64,000 nt of DNA, from positions 384,001-448,000 of the forward strand of contig OZ219865.1 in the NCBI GenBank assembly GCA_964291675.2, read 5' to 3'. Source of the stretch: Alphaproteobacteria bacterium (GTDB lineage Bacteria; Pseudomonadota; Alphaproteobacteria; MPNO01). This document shows positions 3,221 to 21,249 of this stretch, in pieces (position 1 is the first letter of the stretch; every line of letters starts with the position of its first letter). The notes beneath the pieces were generated by a model that saw only the letters and a program-made list of their open reading frames with translations, was not told the origin of the DNA and searched no databases. A program made the position numbers and the translations under genes.

Positions 3221-3330
3221 GACCTGTTACCCGATGAATGGGCGCGTCGACCGCACGCCATCCGGCATTGTCGGCCGGCGCCCCGGGGAGTCAATCGAAA
3301 CCGCCCGCCGGCTCGATTTCCCCTTTGCCC

Positions 3331-3358
3331 TTGCCCGGCGCGGCGATCCGAATAGATT
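3331..3358 (+). promoter_or_regulatory. Candidate sigma70 promoter of the catabolic operon
   Basis: TTGCCC-N16-TAGATT upstream of the DUF35 gene. Confidence 0.4.
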
Positions 3359-3395
3359 GCTTCCATCCGGAGGCCTCCGGGAGAGGGAGTCCAGC

Positions 3396-3830: not shown

Positions 3831-4962
3831 CGTCTCGGTGATCGGCGCCGGCATGGTCCGGTTCGCCAAGCAGCCGGACAAGACGCTGGCCGGGATCGCC
3901 TGGCCCGCGGTCAAGCAGGCGATCGACGACTCGGGCGTCGCGAAACGGGATATCGAGGCCGCCTGGTGCGGCACCGCGCTCGGCGGGATGATGTCGGGGC
4001 AGCGCATCCTCAAGGCGATCGGCCTGACCGGCCTCCCCATCGTCAATGTCGAGAACGCCTGCTCGTCCTCGTCGAGCGCATTCCGCGAGGCCTGGATCGC
4101 GGTGGCGGCCGGGCTCTACGACGTGGCGCTGGTCATCGGGGTCGAGAAGCTCACCAGGTTCGGCGGCGGCACCCTGCCGCTGGAGACCGAGGATTTCGAG
4201 GTCGCCCACGGCATGGTGATGCCGGCGCTCTACGGCATGCGGGCGAAGCGCTACATGCACGATTACGGGCTGACGCGCGAACAGCTCGCCCGCGTCGCGG
4301 TGAAGGCGCACGACCACGGCGCGCTCAACGAGGACGCCCAGTACCGCAACCGGATCACCGTCGGCGAGGTGATGGCGGCGAGACCCATCGCCGACCCCTT
4401 CACGTTGCTGCATTGCTGCCCGTCGGGCGACGGGGCGGCGGCGCTGGTGATCGCCGCGGACTCGGTCGCCGCGCGCTATACCGCGAGACCGGTCCGGGTG
4501 CGCGCCTCCGAGCTCGCATCGGGCAAGTACATGACCGGCTTCCGCGACATGACCACGCCCGAGATCACCGTGCGCGGCGCCGCGGAAGCCTACGAGACGG
4601 CCGGACTCGGCCCGGAAGACATCGACGTCGCCGAGGTGCACGACGCCTTCACCATCGCCGAGCTCCTGTACTACGAGGCCCTCGGCTTCTGCGCTCGCGG
4701 CGACGCGGCGGGGCTGCTGGAGGATGGCGAGACCTCGCTCGGCGGGCGCATACCGGTAAACCCGTCCGGCGGGTTGCTGTCGAAGGGACACCCGATCGGC
4801 GCCACCGGCGCGGCGCAGATGGTCGAGATCGTCCGCCAGCTACGCGGCGATTGCGGCACCCGCCAGGTCGAGGGGGCGAGAACCGGGCTCACCCATTGCA
4901 CGGGTGGCGGCATCTCGGGCTTCGACCACGGCGCCTGCTCGATCCACATTTTCTCGAACTAG
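3823..4962 (+). CDS. Thiolase family protein (SCP2/SCPx-type)
   Basis: VENACSS, EVHDAF and NPSGGLLSKGHPIGATG motifs; overlaps DUF35 gene. Confidence 0.92.
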   Translation: MRDVSVIGAGMVRFAKQPDKTLAGIAWPAVKQAIDDSGVAKRDIEAAWCGTALGGMMSGQRILKAIGLTGLPIVNVENACSSSSSAFREAWIAVAAGLYDVALVIGVEKLTRFGGGTLPLETEDFEVAHGMVMPALYGMRAKRYMHDYGLTREQLARVAVKAHDHGALNEDAQYRNRITVGEVMAARPIADPFTLLHCCPSGDGAAALVIAADSVAARYTARPVRVRASELASGKYMTGFRDMTTPEITVRGAAEAYETAGLGPEDIDVAEVHDAFTIAELLYYEALGFCARGDAAGLLEDGETSLGGRIPVNPSGGLLSKGHPIGATGAAQMVEIVRQLRGDCGTRQVEGARTGLTHCTGGGISGFDHGACSIHIFSN

Positions 4963-4976
4963 CGGCGAGGGAAGGG

Positions 4977-5849
4977 ATGAAACCTCCGCCATTCACCTAT
5001 CACGACCCGCGAACGATCCCCGAAGTGCTGGATCTGCTGGCGGAGAAGGACAACGCGCGGCTGCTCTCGGGCGGGCAGTCGCTGATGCCCATGCTCAACA
5101 TGCGCTACGTGCTGCCCGACGACGTGATCGACCTCAACCGGGTCGACGGGCTGACGGGGATCGAGGCGGCCAACGGCTCGCTCAGCATCCGCGGCATGAC
5201 GCGCCAGCGCGACATCGAGTTCTCCGATGCGGTCTCGGCGCGCTGCCCGATCATGAGCGAGGCGATCCTCCAGGTCGGCCACCGCCAGACCCGCAACCGC
5301 GGCACGCTCGGCGGCAGCCTCGCCCATCTCGACCCCTCGGCCGAGATCCCGGCGGTGGCGATGGCGCTCGACGCGACGATCCATGTCGAGAGCAAGCGCG
5401 GCAGGCGCGACATCGCGATGGCCGATTTCCCGGCCGGCTACATGACCCCGTCGATCGAGCTCGACGAGATGGTGACGGCTGCGACCTTCCCGCTCTGGGA
5501 CGAGGGACACGGCTACGCCTTCATCGAGTTCGCCCGCCGGCACGGCGATTTCGCCATCGTGTCGGCCGCCGCGCTGCTCACCGTGGACGGCGCCGGCAAG
5601 GTCGACCGGGTCTCGATCACGGTCAGCGGCGTCGGCCCCTCGCCGGTGCGCTGCACCGAGGCCGAGGCGATGATTTTGGGGCAGACGCCCGGGCTCGAGC
5701 TGTTCCGCGAGGCGGCGGAGACCGCGCGCGCCTACGAGGCGATGGAGGACGTGCATGCGCCGTCTTCCTATCGCCAGCATCTGGCGGCCGTGCTGTCGCG
5801 GCGCGCGCTCGAGAAGGCGCAGACGCGTCTGGGAGGTTCCAATGGCTGA
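4977..5849 (+). CDS. Molybdenum hydroxylase (xanthine dehydrogenase/CoxM family) FAD-binding subunit
   Basis: MKPPPFTYH, GGQSLMPMLNMR, RNRGTLGGS and RRHGDFA motifs. Confidence 0.93.
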   Translation: MKPPPFTYHDPRTIPEVLDLLAEKDNARLLSGGQSLMPMLNMRYVLPDDVIDLNRVDGLTGIEAANGSLSIRGMTRQRDIEFSDAVSARCPIMSEAILQVGHRQTRNRGTLGGSLAHLDPSAEIPAVAMALDATIHVESKRGRRDIAMADFPAGYMTPSIELDEMVTAATFPLWDEGHGYAFIEFARRHGDFAIVSAAALLTVDGAGKVDRVSITVSGVGPSPVRCTEAEAMILGQTPGLELFREAAETARAYEAMEDVHAPSSYRQHLAAVLSRRALEKAQTRLGGSNG

Positions 5850-6333
5850 CCGGCGCCGGATCAGCGTCACCATCAACGGCGACACCTACGAGCGCGAGGT
5901 CGAGACCAGGCTCCTGCTGTCCGACTTCATCCGCCACGAATGCGAGCTCACCGGCACCCATGTCGGCTGCGAGCACGGGGTGTGCGGCGCCTGCACCATC
6001 CTGCTCGACGGGTTGACGGCCAGAAGCTGCCTGATGCTCGCCGTCCAGGCGGACGGCCACGAGCTTCTGACCATCGAGGGCATCGCGCCCAACGAGGAGG
6101 AGCTGCACCCGCTGCAACAGGCATTTATGGACAATCACGGCCTGCAATGCGGCTACTGCACGCCGGGCATGCTGACCACGCTGCTCGAATTCCTGCGCGA
6201 CAACCCGGACCCGACGGAGCAGGAGGTGAGGATCGCCATCTCCGGCAATCTCTGCCGCTGCACCGGATACCAGGGGATCGTCGACGCCGCGCTCGATGCG
6301 GCGGGGCGCCTGAGGGCGGAGGCCGGGGCCTAA
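5842..6333 (+). CDS. Molybdenum hydroxylase (2Fe-2S) small subunit (CoxS family)
   Basis: GCEHGVCGACT, QCGYCTPG and GNLCRCTGY motifs. Confidence 0.95.
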   Translation: MADRRRISVTINGDTYEREVETRLLLSDFIRHECELTGTHVGCEHGVCGACTILLDGLTARSCLMLAVQADGHELLTIEGIAPNEEELHPLQQAFMDNHGLQCGYCTPGMLTTLLEFLRDNPDPTEQEVRIAISGNLCRCTGYQGIVDAALDAAGRLRAEAGA

Positions 6334-6337
6334 CGTC

Positions 6338-8677
6338 ATGGGTGCCAAGGCGATGGGCGCCCGGGTCAAACGCATGGAGGACCCGGCGCTTCTGACCGGC
6401 CGCGCGACCTTCACCGACGACATCCACCTGCCGGGCATGCTGGAGGCGGCTTTCGTCCGCTCGGCCCAGGCGCATGCGCGCATCCGCGCGATCGACAAGG
6501 CGGCGGCCGAGGCGATGCCGGGCGTCTTCCACGTGGTGACGGCGGCCGACCTGCCACCCGGGCTGCGCCAGGTCCGGGTGCCGTTCCAGGTGCCCAACCC
6601 GGCGATCACCCAGCCCTTCCAGCAGCGCCTGCTGGAAGACGAGGAGGTGTGCTTCGTCGGCGAGGCGATCGCCATGGTGCTCGCCGAGACCCGCTACCAG
6701 GCGGAGGACGCCGCCGCCGCGGTCGAAATCGACTACGAGGTGCTGCCCGCCGCGTCGAACTGCCGGGACGCGCTGGCCGACGGCGCGCCGCCCTGCCACG
6801 CCGACAGCGGGAACAACCTCTGCGCCGAGTTCAAGCTGGGCTATGGCGACGCCGCCGGCGCCTTCGCCGATGCCGAGCACGTCTTCGCGGCCTCGCTGTG
6901 GAGCCACCGGGGCGCCGGGCTCGCGGTGGAGAACCGGGCCGTGGTCGCCGAGCCCGACGCCTTGCGCGACGTGGTCACGCTGTGGTCGGCCACCCAGTCC
7001 CCCTTCCTGGTCAAGCAGAACGTGGTCGACATGCTGGACTGGCCGGCCGACCGGCTGCGCGTGATCGCGCCCGAGGTGGGCGGCGGGTTCGGCCCCAAGA
7101 CGGTCTACTATGTCGAGGAGGCGCTGATCCCGCTCTGCGCGATGACCTTCGACCGGCCGATCAAGTGGGTCGAGGACCGGCGCGAGAACTTCGTCGCCAC
7201 CAACCAGGAGCGCGACCAGTACTGGGACATGGCGCTTGCCTGCGACGGGGACGGAAAGATCCTCGCGGTGCGCGGCACGATGATCCACGACACCGGCGCC
7301 TACATGCCGTGGGGGATCATCAGCCCCTACATCTCCGCGACCACGGTGCCCGGCCCCTATGTCGTGCCCGCTTACGAGCTGACCACCCGCGTCGCGCTGA
7401 CCAACAAGGTCGCGGTGACCCCGGTGCGCGGCGCCGGGCGGCCGCAGGCGGTGTTCGCGATGGAGCGCCTGCTCGACCGCGCGGCGGACGGGCTGGGCAT
7501 CGACCGGGCGGAGATCCGGCGCCGCAACTTCATCCCGACGGACGCGATGCCGTACTCCTTCGGGCTGATCTTCCGCGACGGCAAGCCGATGACCTATGAC
7601 AGCGGCGACTACCCGCGCTGCCAGGCGGAGGCGCTGGCGCTCGCCGATTACGACGGCTTCCCGGGGCGGCGAGATAAGGCCGAGGCCGAAGGCCGCCATG
7701 TCGGGATCGGCATCGCCAACTTCGTCGAGGGCACCGGGCTCGGGCCGTTCGAGGGCGCGACGGTGCGGGTGCACGCGAACGGCAGGATCACCGTCTATAC
7801 CGGGGGCGGCGATTCCGGCCAGGGGCACTGGACGACGCTCGCCCAGCTCTGCGCCGAGCCGCTCGGCGTCGATCCGGCGGACGTCGCCGTCGAGGTCGGC
7901 GATACCGGCAAGATCGCCAACGGCATCGGCACCTTCGCGAGCCGGATCGCGGTGAATGCCGGCAACTCGGTCCATCTCGCCGCGACCTCGGTGCGCGAGA
8001 AGGCGATCAGGATCGCCTCGCATCTGCTGGAGGCGGCCGAGGAAGACCTCGACATCGAGGACGGGCGGATCTTCGTCAAGGGGGTGCCCGAGGTGTCGAC
8101 GACCTTGCGCGACGTCGCCCGGGCGGTGCGCGGCATGCCCGGCTTCTCGCTGCCCGGCGGGGTCGAGCCCGGCCTCGAATCGACCGAGTATTTCTCCCCG
8201 CCCCAGGCGGCCTATTGCAACGGCACCGCGGTCGTCGAGGTCGAGGTCGATCCCGATACCGGCCATGTCGAGATCCTGAACTACGCGATGGCGCACGATT
8301 CGGGGAACCTGATCAACCCCTTCATCGTAGACGGCCAGGTGCACGGCGCCTGCGCGCACGGCATCGGCAACACCCTGCTGGAGTGGATGGGCTATGACGG
8401 CGACGCCCAGCCGGTGACGACGAATTTCGCCGACTACCTGCTGCCGGGCGCGCCCGACGTGCCCCGGATCGACGTGGTCCACGTCGAGTCGCCCACCCCC
8501 AACAACCCGCTCGGCGTCAAGGGGGCGGGGGAGGGGGGGACGATCCCCGCGCTCGCCGCCATCGTCGCCGCGGTCGAGGACGCGCTCGGCCCGTTCGGGG
8601 TGGCGCTCGACGACGTGCCGATCATGCCGGGCCGGCTGGCCGCGCTGATCGAGGACGCGAGAGCGCGCGCCGGGTGA
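6338..8677 (+). CDS. Molybdenum hydroxylase molybdopterin-binding large subunit (CoxL-like, not form I CODH)
   Basis: GGGFGPK, PVRGAGRPQ, GQGHWT and GVKGAGEGG motifs. Confidence 0.93.
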   Translation: MGAKAMGARVKRMEDPALLTGRATFTDDIHLPGMLEAAFVRSAQAHARIRAIDKAAAEAMPGVFHVVTAADLPPGLRQVRVPFQVPNPAITQPFQQRLLEDEEVCFVGEAIAMVLAETRYQAEDAAAAVEIDYEVLPAASNCRDALADGAPPCHADSGNNLCAEFKLGYGDAAGAFADAEHVFAASLWSHRGAGLAVENRAVVAEPDALRDVVTLWSATQSPFLVKQNVVDMLDWPADRLRVIAPEVGGGFGPKTVYYVEEALIPLCAMTFDRPIKWVEDRRENFVATNQERDQYWDMALACDGDGKILAVRGTMIHDTGAYMPWGIISPYISATTVPGPYVVPAYELTTRVALTNKVAVTPVRGAGRPQAVFAMERLLDRAADGLGIDRAEIRRRNFIPTDAMPYSFGLIFRDGKPMTYDSGDYPRCQAEALALADYDGFPGRRDKAEAEGRHVGIGIANFVEGTGLGPFEGATVRVHANGRITVYTGGGDSGQGHWTTLAQLCAEPLGVDPADVAVEVGDTGKIANGIGTFASRIAVNAGNSVHLAATSVREKAIRIASHLLEAAEEDLDIEDGRIFVKGVPEVSTTLRDVARAVRGMPGFSLPGGVEPGLESTEYFSPPQAAYCNGTAVVEVEVDPDTGHVEILNYAMAHDSGNLINPFIVDGQVHGACAHGIGNTLLEWMGYDGDAQPVTTNFADYLLPGAPDVPRIDVVHVESPTPNNPLGVKGAGEGGTIPALAAIVAAVEDALGPFGVALDDVPIMPGRLAALIEDARARAG

Positions 8678-9894
8678 GCGGGGCGCGCCCTCTCGCCGGC
8701 GTTCGCGTCCTCGACCTGACGCAGTTCCTCGCCGGTCCCTTCGCGACCCAGATCCTCGGCGATCTCGGCGCCGAGGTGATCAAGCTCGAATCGCCCTCGG
8801 GCGACTGGTCGCGCAGCCTGCCGCCGCATTTCGTCGGCCCCGACAGCGCCTACTATCTCAGCGTTAACCGCAACAAGAGGAGCGTGGTCGCCGACATGAA
8901 GTCGGCCGAGGGGCTGGCGCTGGTCAAGCGGCTGGCCGGCGCCTCGGACATCGTGATGGAGAATTTCCGCCCCGGCGTGCTGGCCCGGCTGGGGCTGGTC
9001 TACGAAGAGCTCGCGGCCGGGCATGCGGGGCTGATCTGGTGCTCGATCAGCGGCTTCGGCCAGGACGGCCCGGACCGTGACCGCCCGGCCTACGACATGA
9101 TCGTCCAGGCGCTGTCGGGCGGGATGAGCATGACCGGCGTGCCCGGCGAGCCCGCGGTCCGGGCGGGTATCCCGATCGGCGACCTCTGCGCCGGCATGTA
9201 CGGCGCCATCGGCGTGCTCGCCGCGCTGGAGGAGAGGCGGCGCACCGGCAAGGGCCGGCTGGTCGACGTGGCCATGCTCGACTGCCAGGTGGCGATGCTG
9301 TGCTACCAGGCGGCCTATTTCCTGCATTCCGGCGTCGAACCGGGCCGCCAGGGGCGCGGCCACGCCTCGATCCCGACCTACCGCTCCTTCGATGCCGGCA
9401 ACGGCAGCGAGCTGGTGATCACCGCCAACACCGAGCGCATGTGGCGGGCGCTCTGCGGCGTGCTCGGCCTGCAAGGGCTGGTCGACGATCGGCGCTTCGC
9501 GACCAATGACGACCGCTACGCCAACCGCTTCGAGCTGTGGCCGCTGCTCGAGGCGGCGTTCCGCGAGAGGGACGCCGACGACTGGGTGCCGCTGCTGCTG
9601 GAGGCCGGCATACCGGTCGGCCGGGTCAACACGCTGGGGGCGGCGCTGTCGAACCCGCAGATCGGGCACCGCGACATGGTGCTCGATCTCGCCGCGCGCG
9701 ACGGGCGCCGGGTGCGGGTCGCCGGCAACCCGATCAAGTTCGCCGACGGCGCGCCGCCGGACGCCGCCTTCCCGCCGCTGCTCGGCGAGGATACCCGGGC
9801 GGTGCTCGCCGGCGTGCTCGGGCTGAGCGGCGCGGAGATCGAGGCGGCGCTGGCGGCGGGCATCGTCAGCGAACCGGAGGAGGGAACGACATGA
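8674..9894 (+). CDS. Family III CoA transferase (CaiB/BaiF)
   Basis: PLAGVRVLDLT, NRNKRS, ENFRPG and SGFGQDGP motifs; GTG start overlaps previous stop. Confidence 0.93.
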   Translation: MSGARPLAGVRVLDLTQFLAGPFATQILGDLGAEVIKLESPSGDWSRSLPPHFVGPDSAYYLSVNRNKRSVVADMKSAEGLALVKRLAGASDIVMENFRPGVLARLGLVYEELAAGHAGLIWCSISGFGQDGPDRDRPAYDMIVQALSGGMSMTGVPGEPAVRAGIPIGDLCAGMYGAIGVLAALEERRRTGKGRLVDVAMLDCQVAMLCYQAAYFLHSGVEPGRQGRGHASIPTYRSFDAGNGSELVITANTERMWRALCGVLGLQGLVDDRRFATNDDRYANRFELWPLLEAAFRERDADDWVPLLLEAGIPVGRVNTLGAALSNPQIGHRDMVLDLAARDGRRVRVAGNPIKFADGAPPDAAFPPLLGEDTRAVLAGVLGLSGAEIEAALAAGIVSEPEEGTT

Positions 9895-10613
9895 CCGGCG
9901 AGACAATCGCCCTGCAACGGGACGGCGAGATCGCCCGCGTGCGGATCGACCGGCCGGACGCCGGCAACACGATGTCGGCCGGGATGATCGCGGAGCTCAC
10001 CCGGCTGCTGAACGAGGCCGGGTCGGACCCTGCGCTGAAGGCCATCGTGCTGACCGGGGCGGGCGAGGATTTCTGTCTCGGGCGCGAGCCCGGTGCCGGC
10101 GGAGCCAGCCGCACCGCGCTGGAGATGCGCGAGTCGCTGACCGGCCCCATCCTCGGCCTCTACGCCGCGGTGCGCGGCGCCGAGATCCCCGTCGTCGCCT
10201 CGGTGCAGGGCCGGGCCGCCGGGTTCGGCTGCGCGACGGCGGCGGTGTGCGATCTCACCATCGCCGCCGCCGACGCCGCGTTCAGCCTGCCCGAGATGAC
10301 GCACGACCTGCCGCCGACGCTCGCGATGTGCGCCCATATCGACCGGACCATGCCGAAGGCGATCGCCTGGCTGGTCTACTCGACGGAGAGCGTCGATGCG
10401 GCGACCGCGCGGACGCTCGGCTTCGTCAGCCACGTCGTCCCGGCGGCATCGCTGGAGCAGGAAACCGAAGCCCTGCTGGCGACGCTCACGGCGCGGCGGC
10501 GCGATGCGCTGATCACCTGCAAGCGCTTCCTCGCCAATGCGCGGCTGATGGAGACCGACAAGGCCGCCGATTACGCCGGCAACGTGCTGTCGGTGATCCT
10601 GTCGTCGCGCTGA
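9891..10613 (+). CDS. Enoyl-CoA hydratase/isomerase (crotonase) family protein
   Basis: LTGAGEDFCLG, PVVASVQGRAAGFG and FSLPE motifs. Confidence 0.88.
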   Translation: MTGETIALQRDGEIARVRIDRPDAGNTMSAGMIAELTRLLNEAGSDPALKAIVLTGAGEDFCLGREPGAGGASRTALEMRESLTGPILGLYAAVRGAEIPVVASVQGRAAGFGCATAAVCDLTIAAADAAFSLPEMTHDLPPTLAMCAHIDRTMPKAIAWLVYSTESVDAATARTLGFVSHVVPAASLEQETEALLATLTARRRDALITCKRFLANARLMETDKAADYAGNVLSVILSSR

Positions 10614-11737
10614 GCGGTATCGAGCACCCGGTCGAGGATCCAGTTGTCGACCGCGTGAACCCCGGCCTCGCGGTGGCTGAACCGGCCGGGCCGCGCATGC
10701 GGCGAGGCGAGGCCCTGCTGCTGCATCTCGGTCGCGCGGTTGTCCTCGGGGTGCGACGCGTCGGTCCGGGCGATGTAGTCCGCCACGATCGCCGCGAAAT
10801 CGGCCCGCTCGGTCACCGTCTCCGGGAAGCAGAGCCCGGTCAGCACCCGGGTGCGGTCTGCGGCCAACGGACGGAACGACATCCACCACATGCAGTCGAC
10901 CGTGAAGACCAGGAACGAGGCCGGGTAGAGGCCGATGAAATAGGTGCCCTCGGCCGCGCGGCCGTCGAGCGCGGGGATCGGCGGCAGCGTCTCCGCCGCG
11001 CCGAGCCGGGCGGCGATCGATCCCCGGTGCCCGAACCAGGAGCCGGACCAGTGCCCGGACGCCGCGAGCTGTTCCGGCAGCTGGTCGGCCAGCGTGCCGC
11101 GGTGGACGACGGCGACATGGTAGCTCTCGCGCTGGTTCTCCAGGCAGAGCTTCCAGTTGCAGGCCACGTCGTAGGCCCGCCGGTGGACGCAGGTCATGTG
11201 CTCCGCCCGGTGCGAGCGGAGGTATTCGGGAAGATTGCCCAAATGTTCGTCGAGCCCCGCACCTTCGGCTGAGAAGTCGAGAAAGACGAACCCGGCCCAT
11301 TCGGCCAGGCGGAGCGGCACCAGCCCGTACCCGGCGGGGTCGAAATTCTCCGCCCGTTCCATCCCGGCCGCCGCGACAAGTCTGCCGTCGAGCGCGTAGC
11401 TCCAGCCGTGATAGGGGCAGGAGATCGCCTTGGCATTGCCGCTGCCCGAGACCAGCCGGGAGCCGCGATGCCGGCAGGTATTGGCGAAGGCGCGGAGCGC
11501 CCCGTCCGCGCCGCGCAGCACGATCGCCGGCATCCCCGCGAGGTCGACGGTACAATAGTCGCCCGGCCCGGGGATGTCCCCGGCGCGGCAGGCGAGGTTC
11601 CAGTGCACCCGGAATATCCGCTCCCGCTCGCGCGCGTAGAACGCCGGGTCCGTGTAGCAGTCGGGCGGCAGCGTCTCGGCTTCGAGCAAAGGCAGGCGCA
11701 CCTTGGCGTAGCGCGCCGGGTCGAACGGCCCGGTCAA
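10571..11737 (-). CDS. Rieske non-heme iron oxygenase alpha subunit (choline monooxygenase/CntA-like group)
   Basis: CRHRG...CPYHGW Rieske motif; NWK..ENQRESYHVAVVH iron-site motif; ED...EMQQQGL; TTG start overlapping upstream TGA. Confidence 0.9.
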   Translation of the reverse strand: MTGPFDPARYAKVRLPLLEAETLPPDCYTDPAFYARERERIFRVHWNLACRAGDIPGPGDYCTVDLAGMPAIVLRGADGALRAFANTCRHRGSRLVSGSGNAKAISCPYHGWSYALDGRLVAAAGMERAENFDPAGYGLVPLRLAEWAGFVFLDFSAEGAGLDEHLGNLPEYLRSHRAEHMTCVHRRAYDVACNWKLCLENQRESYHVAVVHRGTLADQLPEQLAASGHWSGSWFGHRGSIAARLGAAETLPPIPALDGRAAEGTYFIGLYPASFLVFTVDCMWWMSFRPLAADRTRVLTGLCFPETVTERADFAAIVADYIARTDASHPEDNRATEMQQQGLASPHARPGRFSHREAGVHAVDNWILDRVLDTAQRDDRITDSTLPA

Positions 11738-12468
11738 TGGATCGCGGCGAAGGCGGGGTCGTCGGCGTCGAAGGCGGGCAGCACGAGTCCCAGCTTCCCT
11801 TCGACGACGGCGCGGGCGCGGCCGACATAGTCCTCGCGCATCGCCTCGTTGGTCCGCTTCTTGATGCCCCATCTGCGGTAGAGCGCGTTGTTGCGCGAGC
11901 CCGAGCGCCCGAAGAAGGGCGGGAACAGGGGGAAGATCCGGTCGACATGGGCCTGGATCAGCGCCTTCCCCTCCTCGGTCTGGCAGATGTCTGTGCAAAA
12001 ATTCTCGCCGAACTCGGCATGGAAGTGCTCTTCCGGCATCGTCATCCGTGCCAGCCTTCGCACCGGGTGGAAAGAGCACTGCACAAGGTCCTCGACCTGA
12101 AGGATTTCCGCGAGGTCGCCCAGCATCTTGATGACGCAGAACTCCTCCCAGGTCTGCAGGTCGAAGCTCATCACCGAGAGCGGGCTCTTCTCGGTCGTCT
12201 CGGGCAGCATGCGCTCCTCGGGGATGCCCATCTCGCGGCCGAGCTCGAAGAAGCGGTAGTGGTGGCCGTACTCCTCCATCACGATCCGGCAGGTCAGCCA
12301 CTTGGCGTAGGGCGTCGGCGCGAGCGCGATCGCCGGTTCGTCGTAGACCCGGGAGCCGTGCAGCTCGTTGATCGCATGGCTGACGACGATCTTGCGGCAG
12401 CACTCCCGGTACTCCTCCGGCGCGCCGCGAAAGGCTTCCACGCTCTCGATCTGCGGAAAATCGCTCAT
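11734..12468 (-). CDS. Ferritin-like diiron protein, PaaA/PaaC (acyl-CoA epoxidase) family
   Basis: INELHG...APT...EEYGH and EEHFH (two ExxH motifs); WGIKKRTNEAMR resembles the PaaA C-terminal segment. Confidence 0.8.
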   Translation of the reverse strand: MSDFPQIESVEAFRGAPEEYRECCRKIVVSHAINELHGSRVYDEPAIALAPTPYAKWLTCRIVMEEYGHHYRFFELGREMGIPEERMLPETTEKSPLSVMSFDLQTWEEFCVIKMLGDLAEILQVEDLVQCSFHPVRRLARMTMPEEHFHAEFGENFCTDICQTEEGKALIQAHVDRIFPLFPPFFGRSGSRNNALYRRWGIKKRTNEAMREDYVGRARAVVEGKLGLVLPAFDADDPAFAAIH

Positions 12469-13502
12469 GCCGCCCCCCGGCCCGGCTTCTCGGCCTCAGT
12501 ATAGAACGCATCGGCATGGCAGTCCCGGCGGGCGAGGCCGAGGGCCAGCAGGCGCTCGGTGCAGGTCTCGACCATCGCCGGCGGGCCGGCGAGATAGGCC
12601 TTGAACCCGTCGAGATCGTCGAAATCCGCCGCCAGCGCGTCGGCGAGCCAGCCGGTGCGGCGTCCGGTCGGCCCGTCCGGCTCCGACAGGACGGTGACCG
12701 CGCGCAGATTGGGGTGCCGTGCCGCGAGCGCCTGGAAATGAGCTTCCAGATAGACGTCGCGCTCCGCCCGGGCGCCGAAATAGAGGAACATCTCCTGCCG
12801 GGCGCCGCCGGCGAGCGCGCTGTCGGCGATCGACTTGATCGGGGCGAGGCCGGACCCGCCGGCGACCAGCAGTATCGGCCCGCGGTGGCGCTTGCGGTAA
12901 TGCGCCGTTCCCATCGGACCCGCGACCGCGACCGGATCGCCGGTCCTCAGCGTGTCGAGGACATGGCGGGTGACCAGACCGCCGGGCGCCAGGCGGACGT
13001 GGAATTCGAGCCGCTCGTCGCCGGGTTGCGAGGCCATGGAAAAATCCCGCGGTGGCAGCCCGTCGAAGGCGAGCGCGGCGTATTGCCCGGCGGTGAAGTC
13101 GAACGGCCCGCCGCTCTCGATGTCGAGCGCGAGAATCCGGATGTCGCGCGTCGCGCGTTCGATCGCCGCGACCCGGCAGGCGAGGCGTCGGCTCGCGTGC
13201 ACCGCCTCTTCGTCCGCCCCCACGGGCTCGACCGCGCAGTCCGACCACGGCACCGCGCGGCAGGCGAGGATCAGCCCGCGCCCGCGCTCCTCGTCGTTCA
13301 GCGCGTAAGCCGAATAGGGCGACATCTCGACCTCGCCCGCGGCCAGATGCGACTTGCAGCCGCCGCAATTGCCCGACCGGCAGCCATGCGGATAGTCGAT
13401 CCCAGCTTCCAGCGCGGTCTCGAGGATGGTGCGGCCGGTCGGCACCTCGAACTCCGCCCAGGATTCCCCGCCGGGGTTGTTCAGACTGACGCGATAGGTC
13501 AT
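12465..13502 (-). CDS. 2Fe-2S ferredoxin:FAD/NAD(P)H oxidoreductase (oxygenase reductase, N-terminal ferredoxin)
   Basis: CRSGNCGGCK...LAC, RDFSMAS, AGGSGLAPI and YLAGPP motifs; ATG 13502 with AGGAGG RBS. Confidence 0.9.
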   Translation of the reverse strand: MTYRVSLNNPGGESWAEFEVPTGRTILETALEAGIDYPHGCRSGNCGGCKSHLAAGEVEMSPYSAYALNDEERGRGLILACRAVPWSDCAVEPVGADEEAVHASRRLACRVAAIERATRDIRILALDIESGGPFDFTAGQYAALAFDGLPPRDFSMASQPGDERLEFHVRLAPGGLVTRHVLDTLRTGDPVAVAGPMGTAHYRKRHRGPILLVAGGSGLAPIKSIADSALAGGARQEMFLYFGARAERDVYLEAHFQALAARHPNLRAVTVLSEPDGPTGRRTGWLADALAADFDDLDGFKAYLAGPPAMVETCTERLLALGLARRDCHADAFYTEAEKPGRGAA

Positions 13503-13578
13503 TCCTCCTATATCGAGCCCGGCGGCGGCGATGTCCACCGGCCGGGCCGGCAGACGGAACGCCGACAGGAGGACAGAC

Positions 13579-14577
13579 ATGGAGGGCACCCCGTTTTCAC
13601 TCGCCACATTCGCCGGCGGACCGGCGGGACCGTTCGCGGCGATCGTGTTGGGCGGGACGGCGTTCTCCGTCGCCGGCGTCTATCCCGACTATCGCGACAG
13701 CGCGCGCGGGCGGGCCGGACCGCTGACCGCGACCGGCAGCATCCAGGACATGCTGGAGGGCTGGGACCACAACTTCCCGGTGCTGCAGGAAATCGTCGCC
13801 TTCATCGAGGAGGAGGGGGGTGAGCGCTTCGCTGCCGTCTCGGCCGCCGTCGACGGGCTTCGCGTGCTGCCGCCGGTCCTCCGCCCCGGCAAGATCCTGA
13901 ACGCGGCGCAGAATTTTCAGGAACATGTCGACGAGATGATCCGCGCCGGCAACACGCCCGAGGGCGGGCCGCGCTGGACCGGCGACCGGTCGGCGACGAT
14001 GCCCTATCTGTTTCTCAAGGCGTCCGGCGCGCTGGCCGGCGCCCGTGACGACATCGCCATCCCGCGCGGCATGGAGAAGATCGACTGGGAGGCCGAGATC
14101 GCCTGCGCGGTCTGGAAGCGGGGCAGGCGGATCGGCGCCGACGTCGCGCTCGATCACGTCGCGGGGTGGATGACCGCCAACGACGTCTCCTGCCGCGACC
14201 TCAACATGCGTCCCGACCGCCCGGCGCTGAAATCGGACTGGTTCGGCGGCAAGAGCCACAACGACTTCGCGCCGATGGGGCCGGTGCTGGTGCCCAAGGC
14301 GTTCGTCGCCGACCACATGAACCTGTTCCTCCGCCTCGCGGTGAACGGCGAGATCAAGCAGGACGGCAACACCTCGCAATTCATCTACACGCCGGAGGAG
14401 CAGATCGAATTCGCCTCCGGCATCGCCGAAGTCGAGGTCGGCGACATCTTCGTGTGCGGCACCTGCGGCGGCGTCGGCATGGGGACCGGCACCTTCCTGC
14501 AAGTCGGCGACGTGATGGAGACCGAGGTCGAGGGCCTCGGCAAGATGACCAACCGCCTGGTGGCGGATAGCGGTTGA
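13579..14577 (+). CDS. Fumarylacetoacetate hydrolase family protein
   Basis: IDWEAE, ANDVSCRD, GKS..FAPMGP and GT.GGVG motifs; AGGAGG RBS. Confidence 0.9.
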   Translation: MEGTPFSLATFAGGPAGPFAAIVLGGTAFSVAGVYPDYRDSARGRAGPLTATGSIQDMLEGWDHNFPVLQEIVAFIEEEGGERFAAVSAAVDGLRVLPPVLRPGKILNAAQNFQEHVDEMIRAGNTPEGGPRWTGDRSATMPYLFLKASGALAGARDDIAIPRGMEKIDWEAEIACAVWKRGRRIGADVALDHVAGWMTANDVSCRDLNMRPDRPALKSDWFGGKSHNDFAPMGPVLVPKAFVADHMNLFLRLAVNGEIKQDGNTSQFIYTPEEQIEFASGIAEVEVGDIFVCGTCGGVGMGTGTFLQVGDVMETEVEGLGKMTNRLVADSG

Positions 14578-14930: not shown

Positions 14931-15173
14931 CTAGCTGAACGCCTTGAAGGTGATCAGCGTGAACGTGTCCTTGACCCCGGGCAGGAGCTGGACCTGCTCG
15001 GTGACGAAGTGGCCGATGTCCTGGTCGTCGGCGAGATAGAACTTCATCAGGAGATCGAACTGGCCTGAAATCGAATGCACCTCCGAGGCCTGCTCGATCT
15101 TTTCGATCGCCTCCGCCGCCACGCCGTAGGCCTGGCCGAGCTCGCACTTGACCATGACGAAAATGGTCTGCAT
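14931..15173 (-). CDS. Stand-alone Lrp/AsnC ligand-binding domain protein
   Basis: MQTIFVMVKC...EVHSISGQFDLLMK...GVKDTFTLITF; no HTH. Confidence 0.88.
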   Translation of the reverse strand: MQTIFVMVKCELGQAYGVAAEAIEKIEQASEVHSISGQFDLLMKFYLADDQDIGHFVTEQVQLLPGVKDTFTLITFKAFS

Positions 15174-16531
15174 CAGCCCGTCTCTCCGGTCCCGCCCGGG
15201 CGCAGCAGGAAGGCGGGCACGTGGCCGCCCATGCCGACCACCGAATCGGCGGGCTCCTTCTTGCCCGGCCTGCGCCGCTCGCGTCTGGGAGGGGCGGCTT
15301 TCGGTTCCGCGACGGCTGCCGCATTCTTCTCGGACTTCGCCTTCGCCTTGCCCTTGGACGAGCGCGGCTTGCGGGTCCGCTTCGCCGCCGGCTTGCCGAG
15401 CTCGCCGCGTTCGAGCCCGGCGACCTCGAACCCGGGTATCTCCTTGCCGATCAACCTGGCGATGGCGGAAACCGCTTCGGCATCCCCCGGAGTCGCGATG
15501 GTGAAGGCGCGGCCCTCCTTGCCGGCCCGGCCGGTGCGTCCGATGCGGTGGATGTAGTCCTCGGGGTTGTAGGGGACGTCGAAGTTGAAGACATGGGACA
15601 GATCGACGATATCCAGCCCGCGCGCGGCGACGTCGCTGGCGACCAGGATGCGTATCTCGTTGTTGCGGAACGCCTCCAGGGTCTGGAGGCGGACCGGCTG
15701 CGCCATGTCGCCGTGCAGCGCGGCGACCGCGAAGCCGTGTTTCCTGAGCGAGCGGTATAGAATGTCGACATCGCGCTTGCGGTTGCAGAAGACGAGCGCG
15801 TTCTGCACGTCCTCGCTCTCGACGATGCGGCGCAGCGCCTTCCGCTTGTCGCCGGCCTCGACCACGGCAAGGCGCTGGATCACCGTCTCCGCCGGGCTCG
15901 CCGGCGGGTCGACGTGGATTTCCCTGGGGTTCATCAGGAAGGCGTCGGCGAGGCGGCGGATCTCCGCCGGCATGGTCGCCGAGAAGAACAGGGTCTGGCG
16001 GATCTTCGGCAACTGTCCGACGATTTTCTCCACGTCGGGGATGAAACCCATGTCGAGCATCCGGTCGGCCTCGTCGATCACCAGGACCTTGATGTCGCTC
16101 AACAGGATGCGGCCGCTCTCGTAATGATCGATCAGCCGGCCCGGCGTGGCGATCAGCACGTCGACGCCGCGGCCCAGCTTCTTCGACTGCTCGTCCATCG
16201 AGACGCCGCCGATCAGCAGCGCCTGGGAGAGCTTGTGGAACTTGCCGTACTCGTCGAAGTTCTTCGAGATCTGCATCGCGAGTTCGCGCGTCGGCGTCAG
16301 GATCAGCGAACGCGGCATGCGCGCCCGGGCCCGCCCGGATGACAGGATCTCGATCATCGGCAGCACGAAGGAGGCGGTCTTGCCGGTCCCCGTCTGGGCG
16401 CAGCCCAGGATGTCGCGACCGGTCAGCGCGGCCGGGATCGATTGGTGTTGTATCGGCGTCGGCGTCTCGTAGCCGACATCCGAAATCGCCCGTAGGACGT
16501 CGGGGCCAAGCCCCAGCTCATCAAAACCCAT
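15173..16531 (-). CDS. rhlE: DEAD-box RNA helicase (RhlE-like)
   Basis: Q motif, AQTGTGKT, PTRELA, DEAD, SAT and HRIGRTGR motifs. Confidence 0.93.
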   Translation of the reverse strand: MGFDELGLGPDVLRAISDVGYETPTPIQHQSIPAALTGRDILGCAQTGTGKTASFVLPMIEILSSGRARARMPRSLILTPTRELAMQISKNFDEYGKFHKLSQALLIGGVSMDEQSKKLGRGVDVLIATPGRLIDHYESGRILLSDIKVLVIDEADRMLDMGFIPDVEKIVGQLPKIRQTLFFSATMPAEIRRLADAFLMNPREIHVDPPASPAETVIQRLAVVEAGDKRKALRRIVESEDVQNALVFCNRKRDVDILYRSLRKHGFAVAALHGDMAQPVRLQTLEAFRNNEIRILVASDVAARGLDIVDLSHVFNFDVPYNPEDYIHRIGRTGRAGKEGRAFTIATPGDAEAVSAIARLIGKEIPGFEVAGLERGELGKPAAKRTRKPRSSKGKAKAKSEKNAAAVAEPKAAPPRRERRRPGKKEPADSVVGMGGHVPAFLLRPGGTGETG

Positions 16532-16632
16532 TGATACTCAAGACAGTATGAAGGAAGGCCGCAGTTCTCTGCGGTTGCACCCCATTTGGTTCCCCCGGCG
16601 CGTTTTGTCAAACGCCGATTCGTCGAATCGCC

Positions 16633-18609
16633 TCAGACATCGAGCTCGCCCGCGGCATCGGCGCGGTCGCGGATGAAGGCGAGGCGGGTTTCCGGCTTGC
16701 GGCCCATGAGCTGTTCGACGAGCGCGGCGGTCGCCTCGATGCCGGCGCCGGCCTCCCCGTTGGCGATGCCGATCTGGTAGAGCACGCGCCGCGCCGGGTC
16801 CATGGTGGTCTCGCGAAGCTGTCCGGGCGGCATCTCGCCGAGCCCCTTGAAACGGCTCACCTCGATCTTGCCGCGGCCCCGGAAATGCTCGGCGATCAGC
16901 CGGTCGCGGTGGGCGTCGTCCCGGGCGTAGAGCGTCTGCCCGCCCTGGCTCACCCGGTAGAGCGGCGGAACCGCGAGATAGAGATGGTCGTTCTCGATGA
17001 GCTGGCGCATCTCGCGGAAGAAGAAGGTCATCAGCAGCGAGGCAATATGCGCCCCGTCGACATCGGCGTCGGTCATGATGATGACCCGCTGGTAGCGCAG
17101 CCTGGCGTCGTCGTAATCCGCTCCCCGGCCGCAGCCGAGCGCCTGGACGAGGTCGGCGAGATCCTGGTTCTGGCGCAGCTTCTCGGGCGATGCGCTGGCG
17201 ACGTTCAGGATCTTGCCGCGCAGGGGAAGGATCGCCTGGGTCTCCCGGTCGCGCGCCTGCTTGGCGGAGCCGCCCGCCGAATCGCCCTCTACGAGGAAGA
17301 TCTCGGTGCCGTCGGCCGAGGCGCGGCTGCAATCGGTGAGCTTGCCGGGGAGGCGTACCCGCCGCGTCGGGGTCTTGCGCGCGAATTCGCGGTCCTGCTT
17401 GCGCCGCAGCCGGTCTTCCGCGCGTTCCACCACGTGCTCCAGCAGCGCGCTGGCGCTCGCCGGATCGGCGGTCAGGAAGTGGTCGAAATGGTCCTTGACC
17501 GCGGCATCCACCTGGCGCGCGGCCGTGGCGGTCGACAGCCGGTCCTTGGTCTGGCCCTGGAAGACGGGATCGGGGATGAAGACCGAGAGCAGCCCGCAGG
17601 CGGCGCCCAGGATGTCGTCCCCGGCGATCTGCCCGGCGCGCCGGTTGCCGGTCAGCTCGCCATAGGCCTTGAGCCCGCGGACCAGCGCGGCGCGGAGCCC
17701 GTTCTCGTGGGTCCCGCCGTGCGGCGTCGGCACGGTGTTGCAGTAGGAGCGGAAGAACCGCGCCGCGTCCTCGGGCCAGGCGATCGCCCATTCGGCGCGG
17801 CCGCCGCCATTGAGCGCGGCCTCGCCCGCGAACGGGCGATTGCCGACCAGCGGCGCCCCGGCCAGCGAGTCCGCCAGGTCGTCGACGAGCCCGCCCGGAA
17901 AGCACAGCGTCTCCTCGGCCGGGATCGCGGGATGCCCGTCGCCGCGCGGCGCGGCGCAGCGCCAGCGGATCTCGACCCCTTTCGAGAGATACGCCTTCGA
18001 GCGGGCGAGCGCGTACAGCCGGTCGGCGCGGAGCGCCGCCTCCGCGCCGAAGATCTTCGGGTCGGGATGGAACCGCACCGAGGTGCCGCGACGGTTGCGG
18101 GCGCTCCCCTTGTTTTCCAGCGGACCCTTCGCCCGGCCGCGCGCGTAGCTCTGCCGCCAGAGCGACCGGTCGCGGGCGACCTCCACCGTCATCCGGTCGC
18201 TCAGCGCGTTGACCACCGAAATCCCGACGCCGTGCAGCCCGCCGGCGGTCTTGTAGGCCTCGCCGCCGAACTTGCCGCCGGCGTGAAGCGTCGTCATGAC
18301 GACTTCGAGGGCCGACTTGTCGGCGAATTTGGGATGCGGCTCGACCGGGATGCCGCGCCCGTTGTCGCGCACCACGACCGAGCCGTCGGCTTCGAGCGCG
18401 ATCTCGATCCAGCTCGCATGGCCGGCGACCACCTCGTCCATCGCATTGTCGAGCACCTCGGCCGCGAGATGGTGCAGCGCCGCCTCGTCGGTGCCGCCGA
18501 TATACATGCCGGGCCGCCGGCGCACCGGCTCCAGCCCTTCCAGGACCTCGATGTCGCGGGCCGAGTAGCGCTCGGCGCGGGGCGGCGGTTTGACGGCGGT
18601 ACGCGGCAT
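16633..18609 (-). CDS. parE: DNA topoisomerase IV subunit B
   Basis: LEGLEPVRRRPGMYIG, EGDSAGGSAKQARDR, MTDADVDGAHI and RFKGLGEM motifs; 658 aa, no GyrB insert. Confidence 0.93.
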   Translation of the reverse strand: MPRTAVKPPPRAERYSARDIEVLEGLEPVRRRPGMYIGGTDEAALHHLAAEVLDNAMDEVVAGHASWIEIALEADGSVVVRDNGRGIPVEPHPKFADKSALEVVMTTLHAGGKFGGEAYKTAGGLHGVGISVVNALSDRMTVEVARDRSLWRQSYARGRAKGPLENKGSARNRRGTSVRFHPDPKIFGAEAALRADRLYALARSKAYLSKGVEIRWRCAAPRGDGHPAIPAEETLCFPGGLVDDLADSLAGAPLVGNRPFAGEAALNGGGRAEWAIAWPEDAARFFRSYCNTVPTPHGGTHENGLRAALVRGLKAYGELTGNRRAGQIAGDDILGAACGLLSVFIPDPVFQGQTKDRLSTATAARQVDAAVKDHFDHFLTADPASASALLEHVVERAEDRLRRKQDREFARKTPTRRVRLPGKLTDCSRASADGTEIFLVEGDSAGGSAKQARDRETQAILPLRGKILNVASASPEKLRQNQDLADLVQALGCGRGADYDDARLRYQRVIIMTDADVDGAHIASLLMTFFFREMRQLIENDHLYLAVPPLYRVSQGGQTLYARDDAHRDRLIAEHFRGRGKIEVSRFKGLGEMPPGQLRETTMDPARRVLYQIGIANGEAGAGIEATAALVEQLMGRKPETRLAFIRDRADAAGELDV

Positions 18610-18763
18610 CAGGGCACGGGCCGGGGGACCGGGAAGTCGGGTTCGGAAACGCTGGATATGGTATTCAGGTGCGCAAGAATAACAAGACCCTGTGTTGGCG
18701 GGCGCGGATACGCAAGAAACGGGCCGTTCCGCTGACCGGCGCCGTCTGCCGCCGCCTCGATCC

Positions 18764-20173
18764 TCAGACGCTGTAATAGAGCGCGAACTCGATCGGGTGC
18801 GGCGTGTACTCGAAGGCCTGGATCTCCTCCCTTCTCAGGTCGAGATAGCCGTCGATCAGGTCGTCGGTGAACACGTCGCCCTTCTTGAGGAAGGCCCGGT
18901 CGGCGTCCAGCGCGTCGACCGCCTCGCGCAGCGAGTGGCAGACCGTCGGAATGCCCTCGAGCTCCTCGGCCGGCAGGTCGTAGAGGTTCTTGTCCATCGG
19001 GTCGCCCGGATGGATCTTGTTCTCGATGCCGTCGATTCCGGCCATCAGCATCGCCGCGAAGGCGAGATAGGGGTTGGCCGAGGGGTCCGGGAAGCGGACC
19101 TCGACGCGCTTGCCCTTCGGGCTGGAGGAGAACGGGATGCGGCAGGCGGCCGAGCGGTTGCGCGCCGAGTAGGCGAGCAGGACCGGCGCCTCGAAACCCG
19201 GCACCAGGCGCTTGTAGCTGTTGGTAGTGGGGTTGGAGAAGGCGTTGATCGCCTTGGCGTGCTGGATGATGCCGCCGATATAGTAGAGCGCGTTCTCCGA
19301 CAGGTCGGCATAGCTGGAGCCGGCGAAGACCGGCCGGTCGTCCTTCCAGATCGACTGGTGGACATGCATGCCGGACCCGTTGTCGTCGACGATGGGCTTG
19401 GGCATGAAGGTCGCCGTCTTGCCATAGGAGTGGGCGACGCTCTGGACGACGTATTTGTAGATCTGCACCTGGTCGGCGATGGACAGCAGATCGGCGCCGG
19501 CGATGCCGAGCTCGTTCTGGCTCGGCGCCACCTCGTGGTGGTGCTTCTCGATGTCGACGCCCATCTCGCCCATCACGCTGAGCATCTCGGCGCGCAAATC
19601 GCTCAGCGAATCGACCGGCGGGACCGGGAAATAGCCGCCCTTGATTGCCGGCCGGTGCCCGATATTGCCGCCCTCGAAGCTGCGCGCGGTGTTGTAGGGG
19701 CCCTCCTCTTCGTCGATCGCATAGAAGGTGCTGTTCATCGACACCTCGAAGCGCACGTCGTCGAACACGAAAAACTCGAGCTCGGGCCCGAACATCGCCC
19801 GGTCGCCGATCCCGGACTGCCGGAGATAGGCCTCGGCGCGCTTGGCGGTCGAGCGCGGGTCGCGGGTATAGGGCTGGCCGGTGGTGGGCTCGAGCACGTC
19901 GCAGAACACGATCAGCGAGGTCTGCGCCGAGAACGGGTCGAGCACGGCGCTGTCCGGGTCCGGCATGAGGCACATGTCGGACTCGGAGATGTCCTTCCAG
20001 CCGGCGATGGACGAGCCGTCGAACATGATGCCCGACGCCAGCATGTCCTCGTCGAAGGTCTTCACCGCCTGCGCGGTGTGCTGCCACTTGCCGCGCGGGT
20101 CGGTGAAGCGGAAGTCGACGTATTTGACGTCATGCTCCCCGATGAGGTCGAGGATATTGGGGGCGTCTGACAT
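18764..20173 (-). CDS. glnA: Glutamine synthetase type I
   Basis: FDGSSI, HHHEVA, NGSGMH and adenylylation site NLYDLP. Confidence 0.98.
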
Positions 20174-20223
20174 GGTTCGGTTCCTTCGGAGGATTGCGGT
20201 CTTTGGGACGGCGTCCGTCGCGG

Positions 20224-20658
<435 letters not shown>

Positions 20659-20662
20659 TCAG

Positions 20663-21248: not shown

Positions 21249-21249
21249 G

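Follow-up and report, generated by a model that had tools for sequence, protein, structure and literature searches.

How do two different oxygenases come to stand in one operon behind a single reductase, and what chemistry might such an arrangement serve? This question is raised by three adjoining genes on the minus strand of a 64,000-nucleotide stretch of an alphaproteobacterial genome (assembly GCA_964291675.2, contig OZ219865.1, positions 384,001 to 448,000; hereafter the window, in which positions are counted from the first nucleotide), namely a reductase gene (12465–13502; 345 residues, starting at an ATG that follows an AGGAGG ribosome-binding site), a gene for a ferritin-like diiron protein with the fold of PaaA (11734–12468; 244 residues, ATG start) and a gene for a Rieske oxygenase alpha subunit (10571–11737; 388 residues, TTG start). 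A sequence-only reading of the window had proposed a minimal, single-subunit acyl-coenzyme A (acyl-CoA) diiron oxygenase that shares its reductase with the Rieske enzyme. The reading that we favour, and to which we give an even chance of being correct as a whole, is that an aryl-CoA module of diiron oxygenase and reductase, in most relatives with a short-chain dehydrogenase/reductase (SDR), feeds a gentisate route, and that the Rieske oxygenase was added in the lineage of the window, where it shares the reductase. The valuable part, in our assessment, is the stand-alone family of PaaA-like protein, reductase and (usually) SDR together with its gentisate-cluster context; the arrangement of one reductase with two oxygenases is plausible from the structure of the operon and is confined to one clade.

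The three genes are chained by 4-nt stop/start overlaps on the minus strand, ATGA at 12465–12468 between the reductase and diiron genes and TTGA at 11734–11737 between the diiron and Rieske genes, both read from the sequence, and we take them to be one translationally coupled operon that would provide one reductase of the BenC type and two terminal oxygenases. The closest public relatives of the window, whose G+C content is about 70%, are Defluviicoccus-like alphaproteobacterial metagenome-assembled genomes (MAGs), one of which (locus L001) encodes a diiron protein 98% identical to that of the window. Among the nine loci that group with the window in the phylogeny below (the window clade), the CATGA-type junction between reductase and diiron genes is kept in all nine, and the CATTGAC junction between diiron and Rieske genes was found in five of the eight that bear a Rieske gene, the tblastn match in the other three starting later and leaving the junction unresolved. 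All three genes are real and under purifying selection rather than chance open reading frames (ORFs), because G+C at third codon positions is 0.86–0.90 for the stop-to-stop ORFs 11734–12495 (diiron gene) and 12465–13679 (reductase gene), and because the ratio of nonsynonymous to synonymous substitution (dN/dS), calculated against 8–9 orthologous loci, is low in each case, at 0.04–0.10 for the diiron gene, the most constrained of the operon, 0.14–0.19 for the Rieske gene and 0.12–0.29 for the reductase gene.

The translated diiron protein carries the motifs to which the sequence-only reading had pointed (MEEYGHH at residues 64–70, PEEHFH at 145–150 and WGIKKRTN at 200–207), and the description of the operon given there, with its three overlapping genes, its ferritin-like protein of 244 residues and its reductase with an N-terminal 2Fe-2S domain, was confirmed throughout. 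Pfam placed the protein in PaaA_PaaC (PF05138) with 74.1 bits against a cut-off of 28.5, in agreement with the family suggested earlier, and a phmmer search of the Protein Data Bank (PDB) returned PaaA (1.2e-13), SSO1313 (4mud; 4.7e-8) and BoxB (3e-3). The putative iron ligands likewise matched those of PaaA, as had been supposed: E35, E66, H69, D118, E147 and H150 align with positions 44, 74, 77, 128, 157 and 160 of chain 3pvr_A, which are Glu42, Glu72, His75, Asp126, Glu155 and His158 of native PaaA and are given as its expected iron-binding residues in section 3.2 of PMC4498308, a review cited here and below from part of its text. Across 21 members of the family (alignment A1), each of these six columns is either invariant or conserved to 90% or more. 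An AlphaFold2 model (predicted local distance difference test score, pLDDT, 93.5; predicted template-modelling score, pTM, 0.89) found its best PDB match in PaaA (3pw8_C; query-normalised template-modelling score, TMq, 0.86, root-mean-square deviation 2.0 Å, 26% identity), with SSO1313 (TMq 0.80, 22% identity), PaaC (0.77, 12%) and BoxB (0.73, and 0.39–0.40 when normalised by BoxB length) scoring lower. In one relative with 86% identity (P0002) the stretch that holds E147 and H150 is garbled and looks like a frameshift, owing to either a sequencing error or a pseudogene.

Judged by sequence and model, this protein has the PaaA fold with a full set of putative diiron ligands, yet it is not PaaA. 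We assign it to neither PaaA nor BoxB because equivalog scores, subunit set, reductase type, length and lysine bridge all fail to fit. The NCBIfam cut-offs for PaaA (TIGR02156; 79.2 bits against 280) and BoxB (16.9 bits against 499) were not reached. What the protein shares with PaaABC(D)E systems is the ferritin-like fold, the six ligand positions, PF05138 and a CoA-related gene setting, whereas those systems possess genes for PaaB, PaaC and PaaD, which the diiron family lacks in the window and in the 80 loci described below, and their PaaA is longer (311 residues in the solved chain and a 978-bp paaA in Dinoroseobacter shibae, against 244 residues here). Also, the 2Fe-2S domain of PaaE is C-terminal and that of the window reductase N-terminal, and PaaA has at Lys68 a 'lysine bridge' adjoining its diiron site, where the diiron family has isoleucine or valine (PMC4498308 for PaaE and the lysine bridge). 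The same source gives PaaA alone as insoluble, owing to its hydrophobic interface with PaaC (PMC4498308). The fold of BoxB is related to that of the diiron protein (at the TMq of 0.73 given above), but BoxB has 471–481 residues against 244. For BoxAB, a diiron aryl-CoA oxygenase, a reductase suffices and there are no subunits of the PaaB/C type; the BoxA model gave 27 bits on the window reductase against a cut-off of 459. A stand-alone PaaA_PaaC fold of about 235 residues is also found in SSO1313 of Sulfolobus solfataricus (PDB 4mud), at an identity of only 22%; the entry calls it only a 'related protein'.

The reductase, annotated as NADH-dependent, shows the domain order [2Fe-2S], flavin adenine dinucleotide (FAD), nicotinamide adenine dinucleotide (NAD), with Pfam matches to Fer2 (residues 15–85), FAD_binding_6 (109–202) and NAD_binding_1 (212–314), which is the order of BenC, T4moF and MmoC and of class IB systems. 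Its best NCBIfam match was BenC (175.9 bits against a cut-off of 430), the PaaE model gave 132.9 against 420.8, and neither cut-off was reached. The nearest solved structures, 5ogx (4.8e-50), BenC (1krh), CarAd (7c3a), T4moF (4wqm) and MmoC (1tvc), serve a P450 (5ogx), Rieske oxygenases (1krh, 7c3a) and diiron enzymes (4wqm, 1tvc), and because the same architecture serves both types, one reductase feeding a Rieske and a diiron enzyme would be chemically unremarkable. In the class IB systems BenABC and AntABC, a three-domain reductase of the BenC type feeds the Rieske oxygenase directly, without a separate ferredoxin, as here; Pfam revealed no second reductase or ferredoxin gene among the genes neighbouring the triad. 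From the structure of the operon, it is a reasonable inference that both oxygenases take their electrons from the single reductase. The difference from class IB Rieske systems lies in the conserved partner of the reductase, which is here the diiron protein and not the Rieske protein.

That partnership emerged from the relatives of the diiron protein. At E ≤ 1e-3 we found 2071 proteins among the candidates of a word-indexed search, the best 120 being 64–91% identical and 196–245 residues long; a library of representatives at 50% identity yielded 386 at E ≤ 1e-3, 153 at 1e-10 and 33 at 1e-30; and in a collection with one genome per species 599 stretches matched, at least 524 of which encode a relative of the diiron family. 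Neighbourhoods were counted in the best 80 of these at least 524 loci, almost all of them from alphaproteobacterial MAGs, with only those loci counted that had enough flank on the relevant side; the ORFs of the 80 loci were clustered and the cluster representatives annotated with Pfam and NCBIfam, and Pfam was also run on 89 of 126 selected ORFs, which came from 7 of the 9 loci chosen. The reductase is the conserved partner of the diiron family, its gene lying upstream on the same strand in 9/9 loci of the window clade and 54/60 other loci, which upholds the dedicated reductase with N-terminal 2Fe-2S domain that had been proposed. With queries from the annotated D. shibae paaABCDE cluster, tblastn (E ≤ 1e-3) found no match to PaaB, PaaC or PaaD in the 64-kb window or in any of the 80 loci, a search that a remote PaaC could escape, and the 89 Pfam-scanned ORFs of the 7 loci held no second PF05138, PaaB or PaaD match. 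The PaaA-like protein thus stands without PaaB/C/D, as the sequence-only reading had it, and on sequence grounds the diiron family appears as a separate, compact and widespread one. The source names given to its members look over-annotated, with PaaB/C/D missing and the equivalog score below threshold.

Between the reductase and diiron genes, 66 of the 67 other loci, and none of the nine in the window clade, carry an SDR gene. In an alignment, 64 of the adjacent SDRs retain the glycine-rich loop and the catalytic N, S and Y-x3-K residues; their best NCBIfam models are of 3-oxoacyl reductase types, and the conserved stretch around the catalytic tyrosine presumably resembles (3R)-hydroxyacyl-CoA dehydrogenases of the MFE-2 type. 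A search for longer forms gave six matches, among them an in-frame SDR–diiron fusion of 546 residues with a linker of about 8 residues (P0391, a single-member protein) and two sequences that read like frameshifted read-throughs of the SDR/diiron gene pair (P0392, P0394). While the fusion lends the SDR partnership weak support, an intact SDR in nearly every other locus, together with that fusion, makes the earlier label 'minimal single-subunit' doubtful for the diiron family.

The usual gene order elsewhere is ligase< MarR< reductase> SDR> diiron> gentisate dioxygenase> u201> FAH, the arrowheads giving direction. A gentisate 1,2-dioxygenase gene lies within 4 kb in 37/57 other loci (window clade 0/9), and its product is a bona fide member of that family (TIGR02272; 574 bits against a cut-off of 442). 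In 24/50 other loci and 8/9 of the window clade an FAH hydrolase gene is found no more than 5 kb from the diiron gene, and an acyl-CoA ligase gene upstream in 22/53 and 4/8, respectively, the nearest solved relatives of the ligase including feruloyl-CoA synthetase and 4-coumarate ligase. MarR (33/50 other loci) and a 4HBT thioesterase (10/57) were found in 0/9 loci of the window clade, and the large subunit of a molybdenum hydroxylase in 8/8 of the window clade and 4/37 of the others. The element u201, a 201-residue protein of unknown family (about 190–200 residues across loci, e.g., L059:9773–10378 and L072:8659–9264), comes after either the diiron gene or the gentisate dioxygenase gene in 37/57 other loci and 0/9 of the window clade; its AlphaFold model (pLDDT 94) is mostly helical, it had no Pfam or NCBIfam match and no significant fold match in the PDB (best E 0.11), and it may be a missing enzyme of the pathway.

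On plasmids, a tblastn search of a plasmid collection gave 323 records, all below 60% identity (26–28% among the matches listed), with no annotated cultured close relative; these are true paaA genes or other PaaA-like subfamilies. PaaA_PaaC proteins were also met in roles other than the canonical ones. Plasmid 4 of Variovorax sp. WDL1 (L084) encodes a 373-residue PaaA_PaaC protein adjoining SDR, OB-fold, thiolase, two MaoC and AMP-ligase genes, plasmid 1 of Paracoccus denitrificans (L083) an extra PaaA_PaaC protein of 250 residues after paaE in a true paa cluster, and a Burkholderia record (L081) a stand-alone PaaA_PaaC protein adjoining radical SAM, PaaI thioesterase and cupin genes.

To place the arrangement of the window among its relatives, we built a maximum-likelihood tree of 75 rows. 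Of the 74 clustered PaaA-like ORFs, 66 entered it, the other 8 having lengths outside 225–300 residues, and the remaining rows were the window, D. shibae PaaA and 7 distant representatives. The window, the eight Rieske-linked loci and L008 form one clade (support 100/99), which is nested in a 22-row set otherwise made up of SDR-linked marine loci, and this set in turn lies inside lineages that carry an SDR plus gentisate dioxygenase. Because the window clade is nested among SDR-linked clades, the loss of the SDR and the gain of the Rieske gene would be derived, a polarity taken from the nesting in a midpoint-rooted tree with no firm root, in which two of the distant representatives, P0127 and P0155, sit on long branches within the ingroup. 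The module of reductase and diiron protein is old, and 'one reductase, two oxygenases' would, from the structure of the operon, be a recent rewiring of one lineage. The Rieske gene, downstream of the diiron gene, is confined to this Defluviicoccus-like clade (8/9 loci, L008 being without it, against 0/61 elsewhere), and the triad is not conserved outside it, an outcome that the sequence-only reading had named as one that would refute it. Compared with the other 57 sequences, the diiron protein of the clade differs at only four otherwise conserved positions (A23C, V62I, L136V, N138R) and in a short C-terminal tail; its chemistry is probably unchanged.

The Rieske protein matched the Pfam families Rieske (71 bits) and Ring_hydroxyl_A (109.7 bits), and its TTG start is supported because homologues share the N-terminus FDPAxYAKVRL. 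Invariant in the alignment are C88, H90, C107 and H110 of the Rieske cluster, N194-W195-K196, E200, E204, H207, H212 and D332; because the CxH...CxxH motif and the catalytic residues are invariant, the protein is predicted to be a catalytic oxygenase, with D332 as the likely carboxylate of its 2-His-1-carboxylate site. No ORF for a beta subunit follows at the locus, as had been claimed, and the 3' end of the gene shares 43 nt with that of the convergent enoyl-CoA hydratase gene. An alpha subunit without a beta subunit is also seen in CntAB, GbcAB and Stc2, but the GbcA equivalog, the best NCBIfam match, scored 168.8 bits, far below its cut-off of 670. The nearest solved relatives, CntA (6y8j; about 2e-38), 3n0q, Stc2 (3vca) and the demethylase 4qup, match only residues 21–219, the N-terminal half. 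The wider family is large and unnamed, its members being labelled at source as 'aromatic ring-hydroxylating dioxygenase subunit alpha' or 'choline monooxygenase'.

As predicted from its neighbours, the reductase/diiron module is probably an aryl-CoA oxygenase that feeds gentisate cleavage. The acyl-CoA chemistry put forward in the sequence-only reading remains plausible in this light, as a prediction from ligase, thioesterase and CoA-transferase neighbours. BoxB epoxidises ring C2–C3 of benzoyl-CoA, and PaaA ring C1–C2 of phenylacetyl-CoA (PMC4498308 for PaaA). Like both, the diiron enzyme would take an aromatic acid activated with CoA and attack those ring carbons that lie beta/gamma to the thioester. 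In clusters with an SDR, epoxidation or hydroxylation next to the thioester would be followed by the addition of water, upon which the SDR would oxidise the beta-hydroxyl and restore aromaticity to give a dihydroxybenzoyl-CoA (gentisyl-CoA); the thioester would then be hydrolysed, the ring cleaved by gentisate dioxygenase and the product processed by the FAH protein. In the Defluviicoccus-like lineage the SDR and dioxygenase would have left the cluster and a Rieske monooxygenase been inserted behind the diiron gene. On the same reductase, the Rieske enzyme might carry out a second oxygenation that replaces hydration and dehydrogenation, or might demethylate or hydroxylate a precursor; it would most likely act on the same aromatic acyl substrate, a role that the SDR-dependent steps would fill elsewhere.

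A CoA-dependent aerobic route to gentisate was described biochemically in the 1990s, when Altenschmidt and colleagues (in 1993) reportedly treated a benzoyl-CoA pathway via 3-hydroxybenzoyl-CoA, and to our knowledge the genes of that route have never been assigned. It would be a bold step, and one we think unlikely to prove right, to regard the trio of reductase, SDR and PaaA-like protein as a third type of diiron aryl-CoA oxygenase that supplies the missing genes for CoA-dependent aerobic conversion of benzoate or hydroxybenzoate to gentisate, with the window lineage as a diiron and Rieske hybrid on one reductase and the same substrate. SdgC and PhgA are flavoproteins of another protein family (set apart here by description). 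As salicyloyl-CoA 5-hydroxylase and 4-hydroxybenzoyl-CoA 1-hydroxylase, respectively, they stand for CoA-dependent routes to gentisate (PMC13215587 and PMC11848710, both cited from part of their text). Their context of ligase, hydroxylase, thioesterase and gentisate dioxygenase makes them work-alikes that match the related loci, whereas the window is without the ligase, thioesterase and dioxygenase of such clusters. Our literature search, which left most subscription journals outside its reach, found no paper on the diiron family or on a PaaA-like diiron enzyme in gentisate, gentisyl-CoA or hydroxybenzoyl-CoA hydroxylation.

Several observations weigh against the aryl-CoA and gentisate reading. 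Substrate, product and CoA dependence are all drawn from neighbouring genes; the loci examined are the best 80 of at least 524; and gentisate dioxygenase accompanies only the 37 of 57 loci given above, a marine clade having FAH, amidohydrolase_2 and a thiamine pyrophosphate enzyme instead. Across the 64 kb of the window we found no acyl-CoA ligase, 4HBT thioesterase, SDR of the adjacent type or gentisate dioxygenase, so that the link to gentisate comes from relatives only 62–78% identical; the ligase of four of eight clade loci sits between the FAH and reductase genes, and the window is without it. At the position of the PaaA lysine bridge stands Ile62 in the window clade and valine in 55 of 57 other sequences. 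The reductase/diiron pair does not need the Rieske protein, because 0/61 other loci and not even L008 possess its gene, and the closest Rieske structures solved (CntA, Stc2, 4qup) belong to enzymes for quaternary amines or N-methyl groups rather than for aryl-CoA.

These last two points are also what gives substance to a different account, in which the Rieske gene is an operon passenger acting on an unrelated substrate (a quaternary amine or methylated compound), maybe borrowing the reductase, while the reductase and diiron protein would go on with their ancestral function, served by an SDR whose gene lies at another place in the genome. GbcA as best NCBIfam match and a diiron protein nearly unchanged from SDR-linked forms fit this account as well, but at least five of eight loci keep the stop/start overlap between the diiron and Rieske genes, the family scores fall far short of cut-off (168.8 against 670) and match the N-terminal half only, and no amine transporter or catabolic gene adjoins the triad; we regard it as unlikely. 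It has also to be considered that the diiron family might oxygenate an acyl-CoA not on a ring but at its beta-carbon (aliphatic or benzylic), the SDR then turning the 3-hydroxyacyl-CoA into a 3-oxoacyl-CoA in an O2-dependent shortcut of beta-oxidation, with the convergent thiolase, DUF35, hydratase and CoA-transferase genes of the window, all within 8 kb, supplying the later steps. The adjacent SDR, catalytically intact and of a 3-hydroxyacyl-CoA dehydrogenase type (given the MFE-2 likeness that we presume), would suit such a shortcut, as would the company of the PaaA-like gene on the Variovorax plasmid (SDR, OB-fold, thiolase, MaoC, AMP-ligase) and the feruloyl-CoA and 4-coumarate relatives of the ligase. 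We nonetheless think it distinctly unlikely, as none of the conserved gene clusters annotated in the 80 loci is a thiolase, the recurrent partners are gentisate dioxygenase, FAH and thioesterase, and PaaA and BoxB, which alone among the relatives are characterised, epoxidise aromatic rings (PMC4498308).

Two further accounts concern what the individual proteins are, and both strike us as highly improbable. Diiron monooxygenases with a Rieske carrier exist, and T4moF is one of the solved structures closest to our reductase, so the Rieske protein could be imagined as a shuttle from reductase to diiron protein in the manner of T4moC, the Rieske ferredoxin of four-component diiron monooxygenases; it has, however, a full catalytic domain in its 388 residues with invariant His207/His212 and Asp332 under purifying selection, the reductase carries its own 2Fe-2S domain, and reductase and diiron protein occur without a Rieske protein in 54/60 other loci. 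Because its catalytic residues are invariant, we rejected a role for it as an electron carrier alone. In the same way the PaaA-like protein has a size reminiscent of PaaC (about 240–250 residues) and might be an iron-free structural or regulatory protein, against which stand its six invariant or nearly invariant ligand positions, its conserved dedicated reductase, and its closer likeness to PaaA (26%, 0.86) than to PaaC (12%, 0.77); a PaaC-like scaffold was rejected on the conservation of the ligands.

Returning to the reading of an aryl-CoA module that feeds gentisate cleavage, the diiron family probably points to a hitherto undescribed hydroxylation of aromatic acids bound to CoA, as predicted from gene context in other genomes. 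The only characterised diiron aryl-CoA oxygenases that we met among its relatives are PaaABCE and BoxAB, which define the 'hybrid' aerobic aromatic pathways. If the reading is true, at least 524 species genomes would contain a third architecture that combines the PaaA active site with a different subunit logic (no PaaB/C/D, a reductase of class IB type and usually an SDR partner), and that would probably be a new entry into the gentisate pathway, while the window clade would represent a natural experiment in module swapping, in which an SDR-dependent step gave way to a Rieske oxygenase on the same reductase. It has been proposed that PaaA and PaaC serve to mark phenylacetate catabolism in genomes (PMC13186573, cited from part of its text), and therefore the diiron family would give false positives for that trait.

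Around the triad, the reductase and FAH start codons are separated by 76 bp of divergent intergenic region (13503–13578), a putative shared control region; it contains a near-palindrome (13533–13555) that could be an operator, although the region is GC-rich and the palindrome may be due to chance, and a promoter scan of 10300–13800 found no sigma-70 consensus. The divergent gene (13579–14577, plus strand; ATG at 13579 behind an AGGAGG ribosome-binding site) encodes an FAH-family hydrolase/isomerase (FAA_hydrolase, 187 bits) whose nearest solved structures are enzymes of the HpcE/HpaG type. On the other side, a convergent operon of CoA-dependent catabolism annotated with Pfam and NCBIfam (3108–10613, plus strand) begins with a ChsH2/DUF35 OB-fold protein and an SCP-x-type thiolase-like protein (to 4962), continues with a CoxM-like FAD subunit (to 5849), a CoxS-like 2Fe-2S subunit (to 6333) and a CoxL-like molybdenum subunit (6338–8677) that completes a CoxM/S/L-like molybdenum hydroxylase, and ends with a family III CoA-transferase (8674–9894) and an enoyl-CoA hydratase (about 9900–10613), all on the plus strand. 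This operon is syntenic with the triad across the window clade (molybdenum large subunit in 8/8), and the large subunit is also found upstream of the reductase in the unrelated loci L032, L034, L038 and L072; the operon is possibly linked to the triad in function.

Farther along the window, 31303–36493 (minus strand) encodes an amidohydrolase_2 protein (29% identical to the one of the marine PaaA-like clusters), a fused TRAP transporter of the DctM type and an NMT1-like binding protein, and may be another unit for aromatic-acid uptake and decarboxylation. The catabolic island is flanked by housekeeping genes at 15173–29309 and 38508–51650, among them a DEAD-box helicase, a topoisomerase subunit of the GyrB/ParE type, glnA, a PII protein, an extracytoplasmic-function (ECF) sigma factor, an rpoH/rpoD-like sigma factor, a pseudouridine synthase and a long nuo (complex I) operon.

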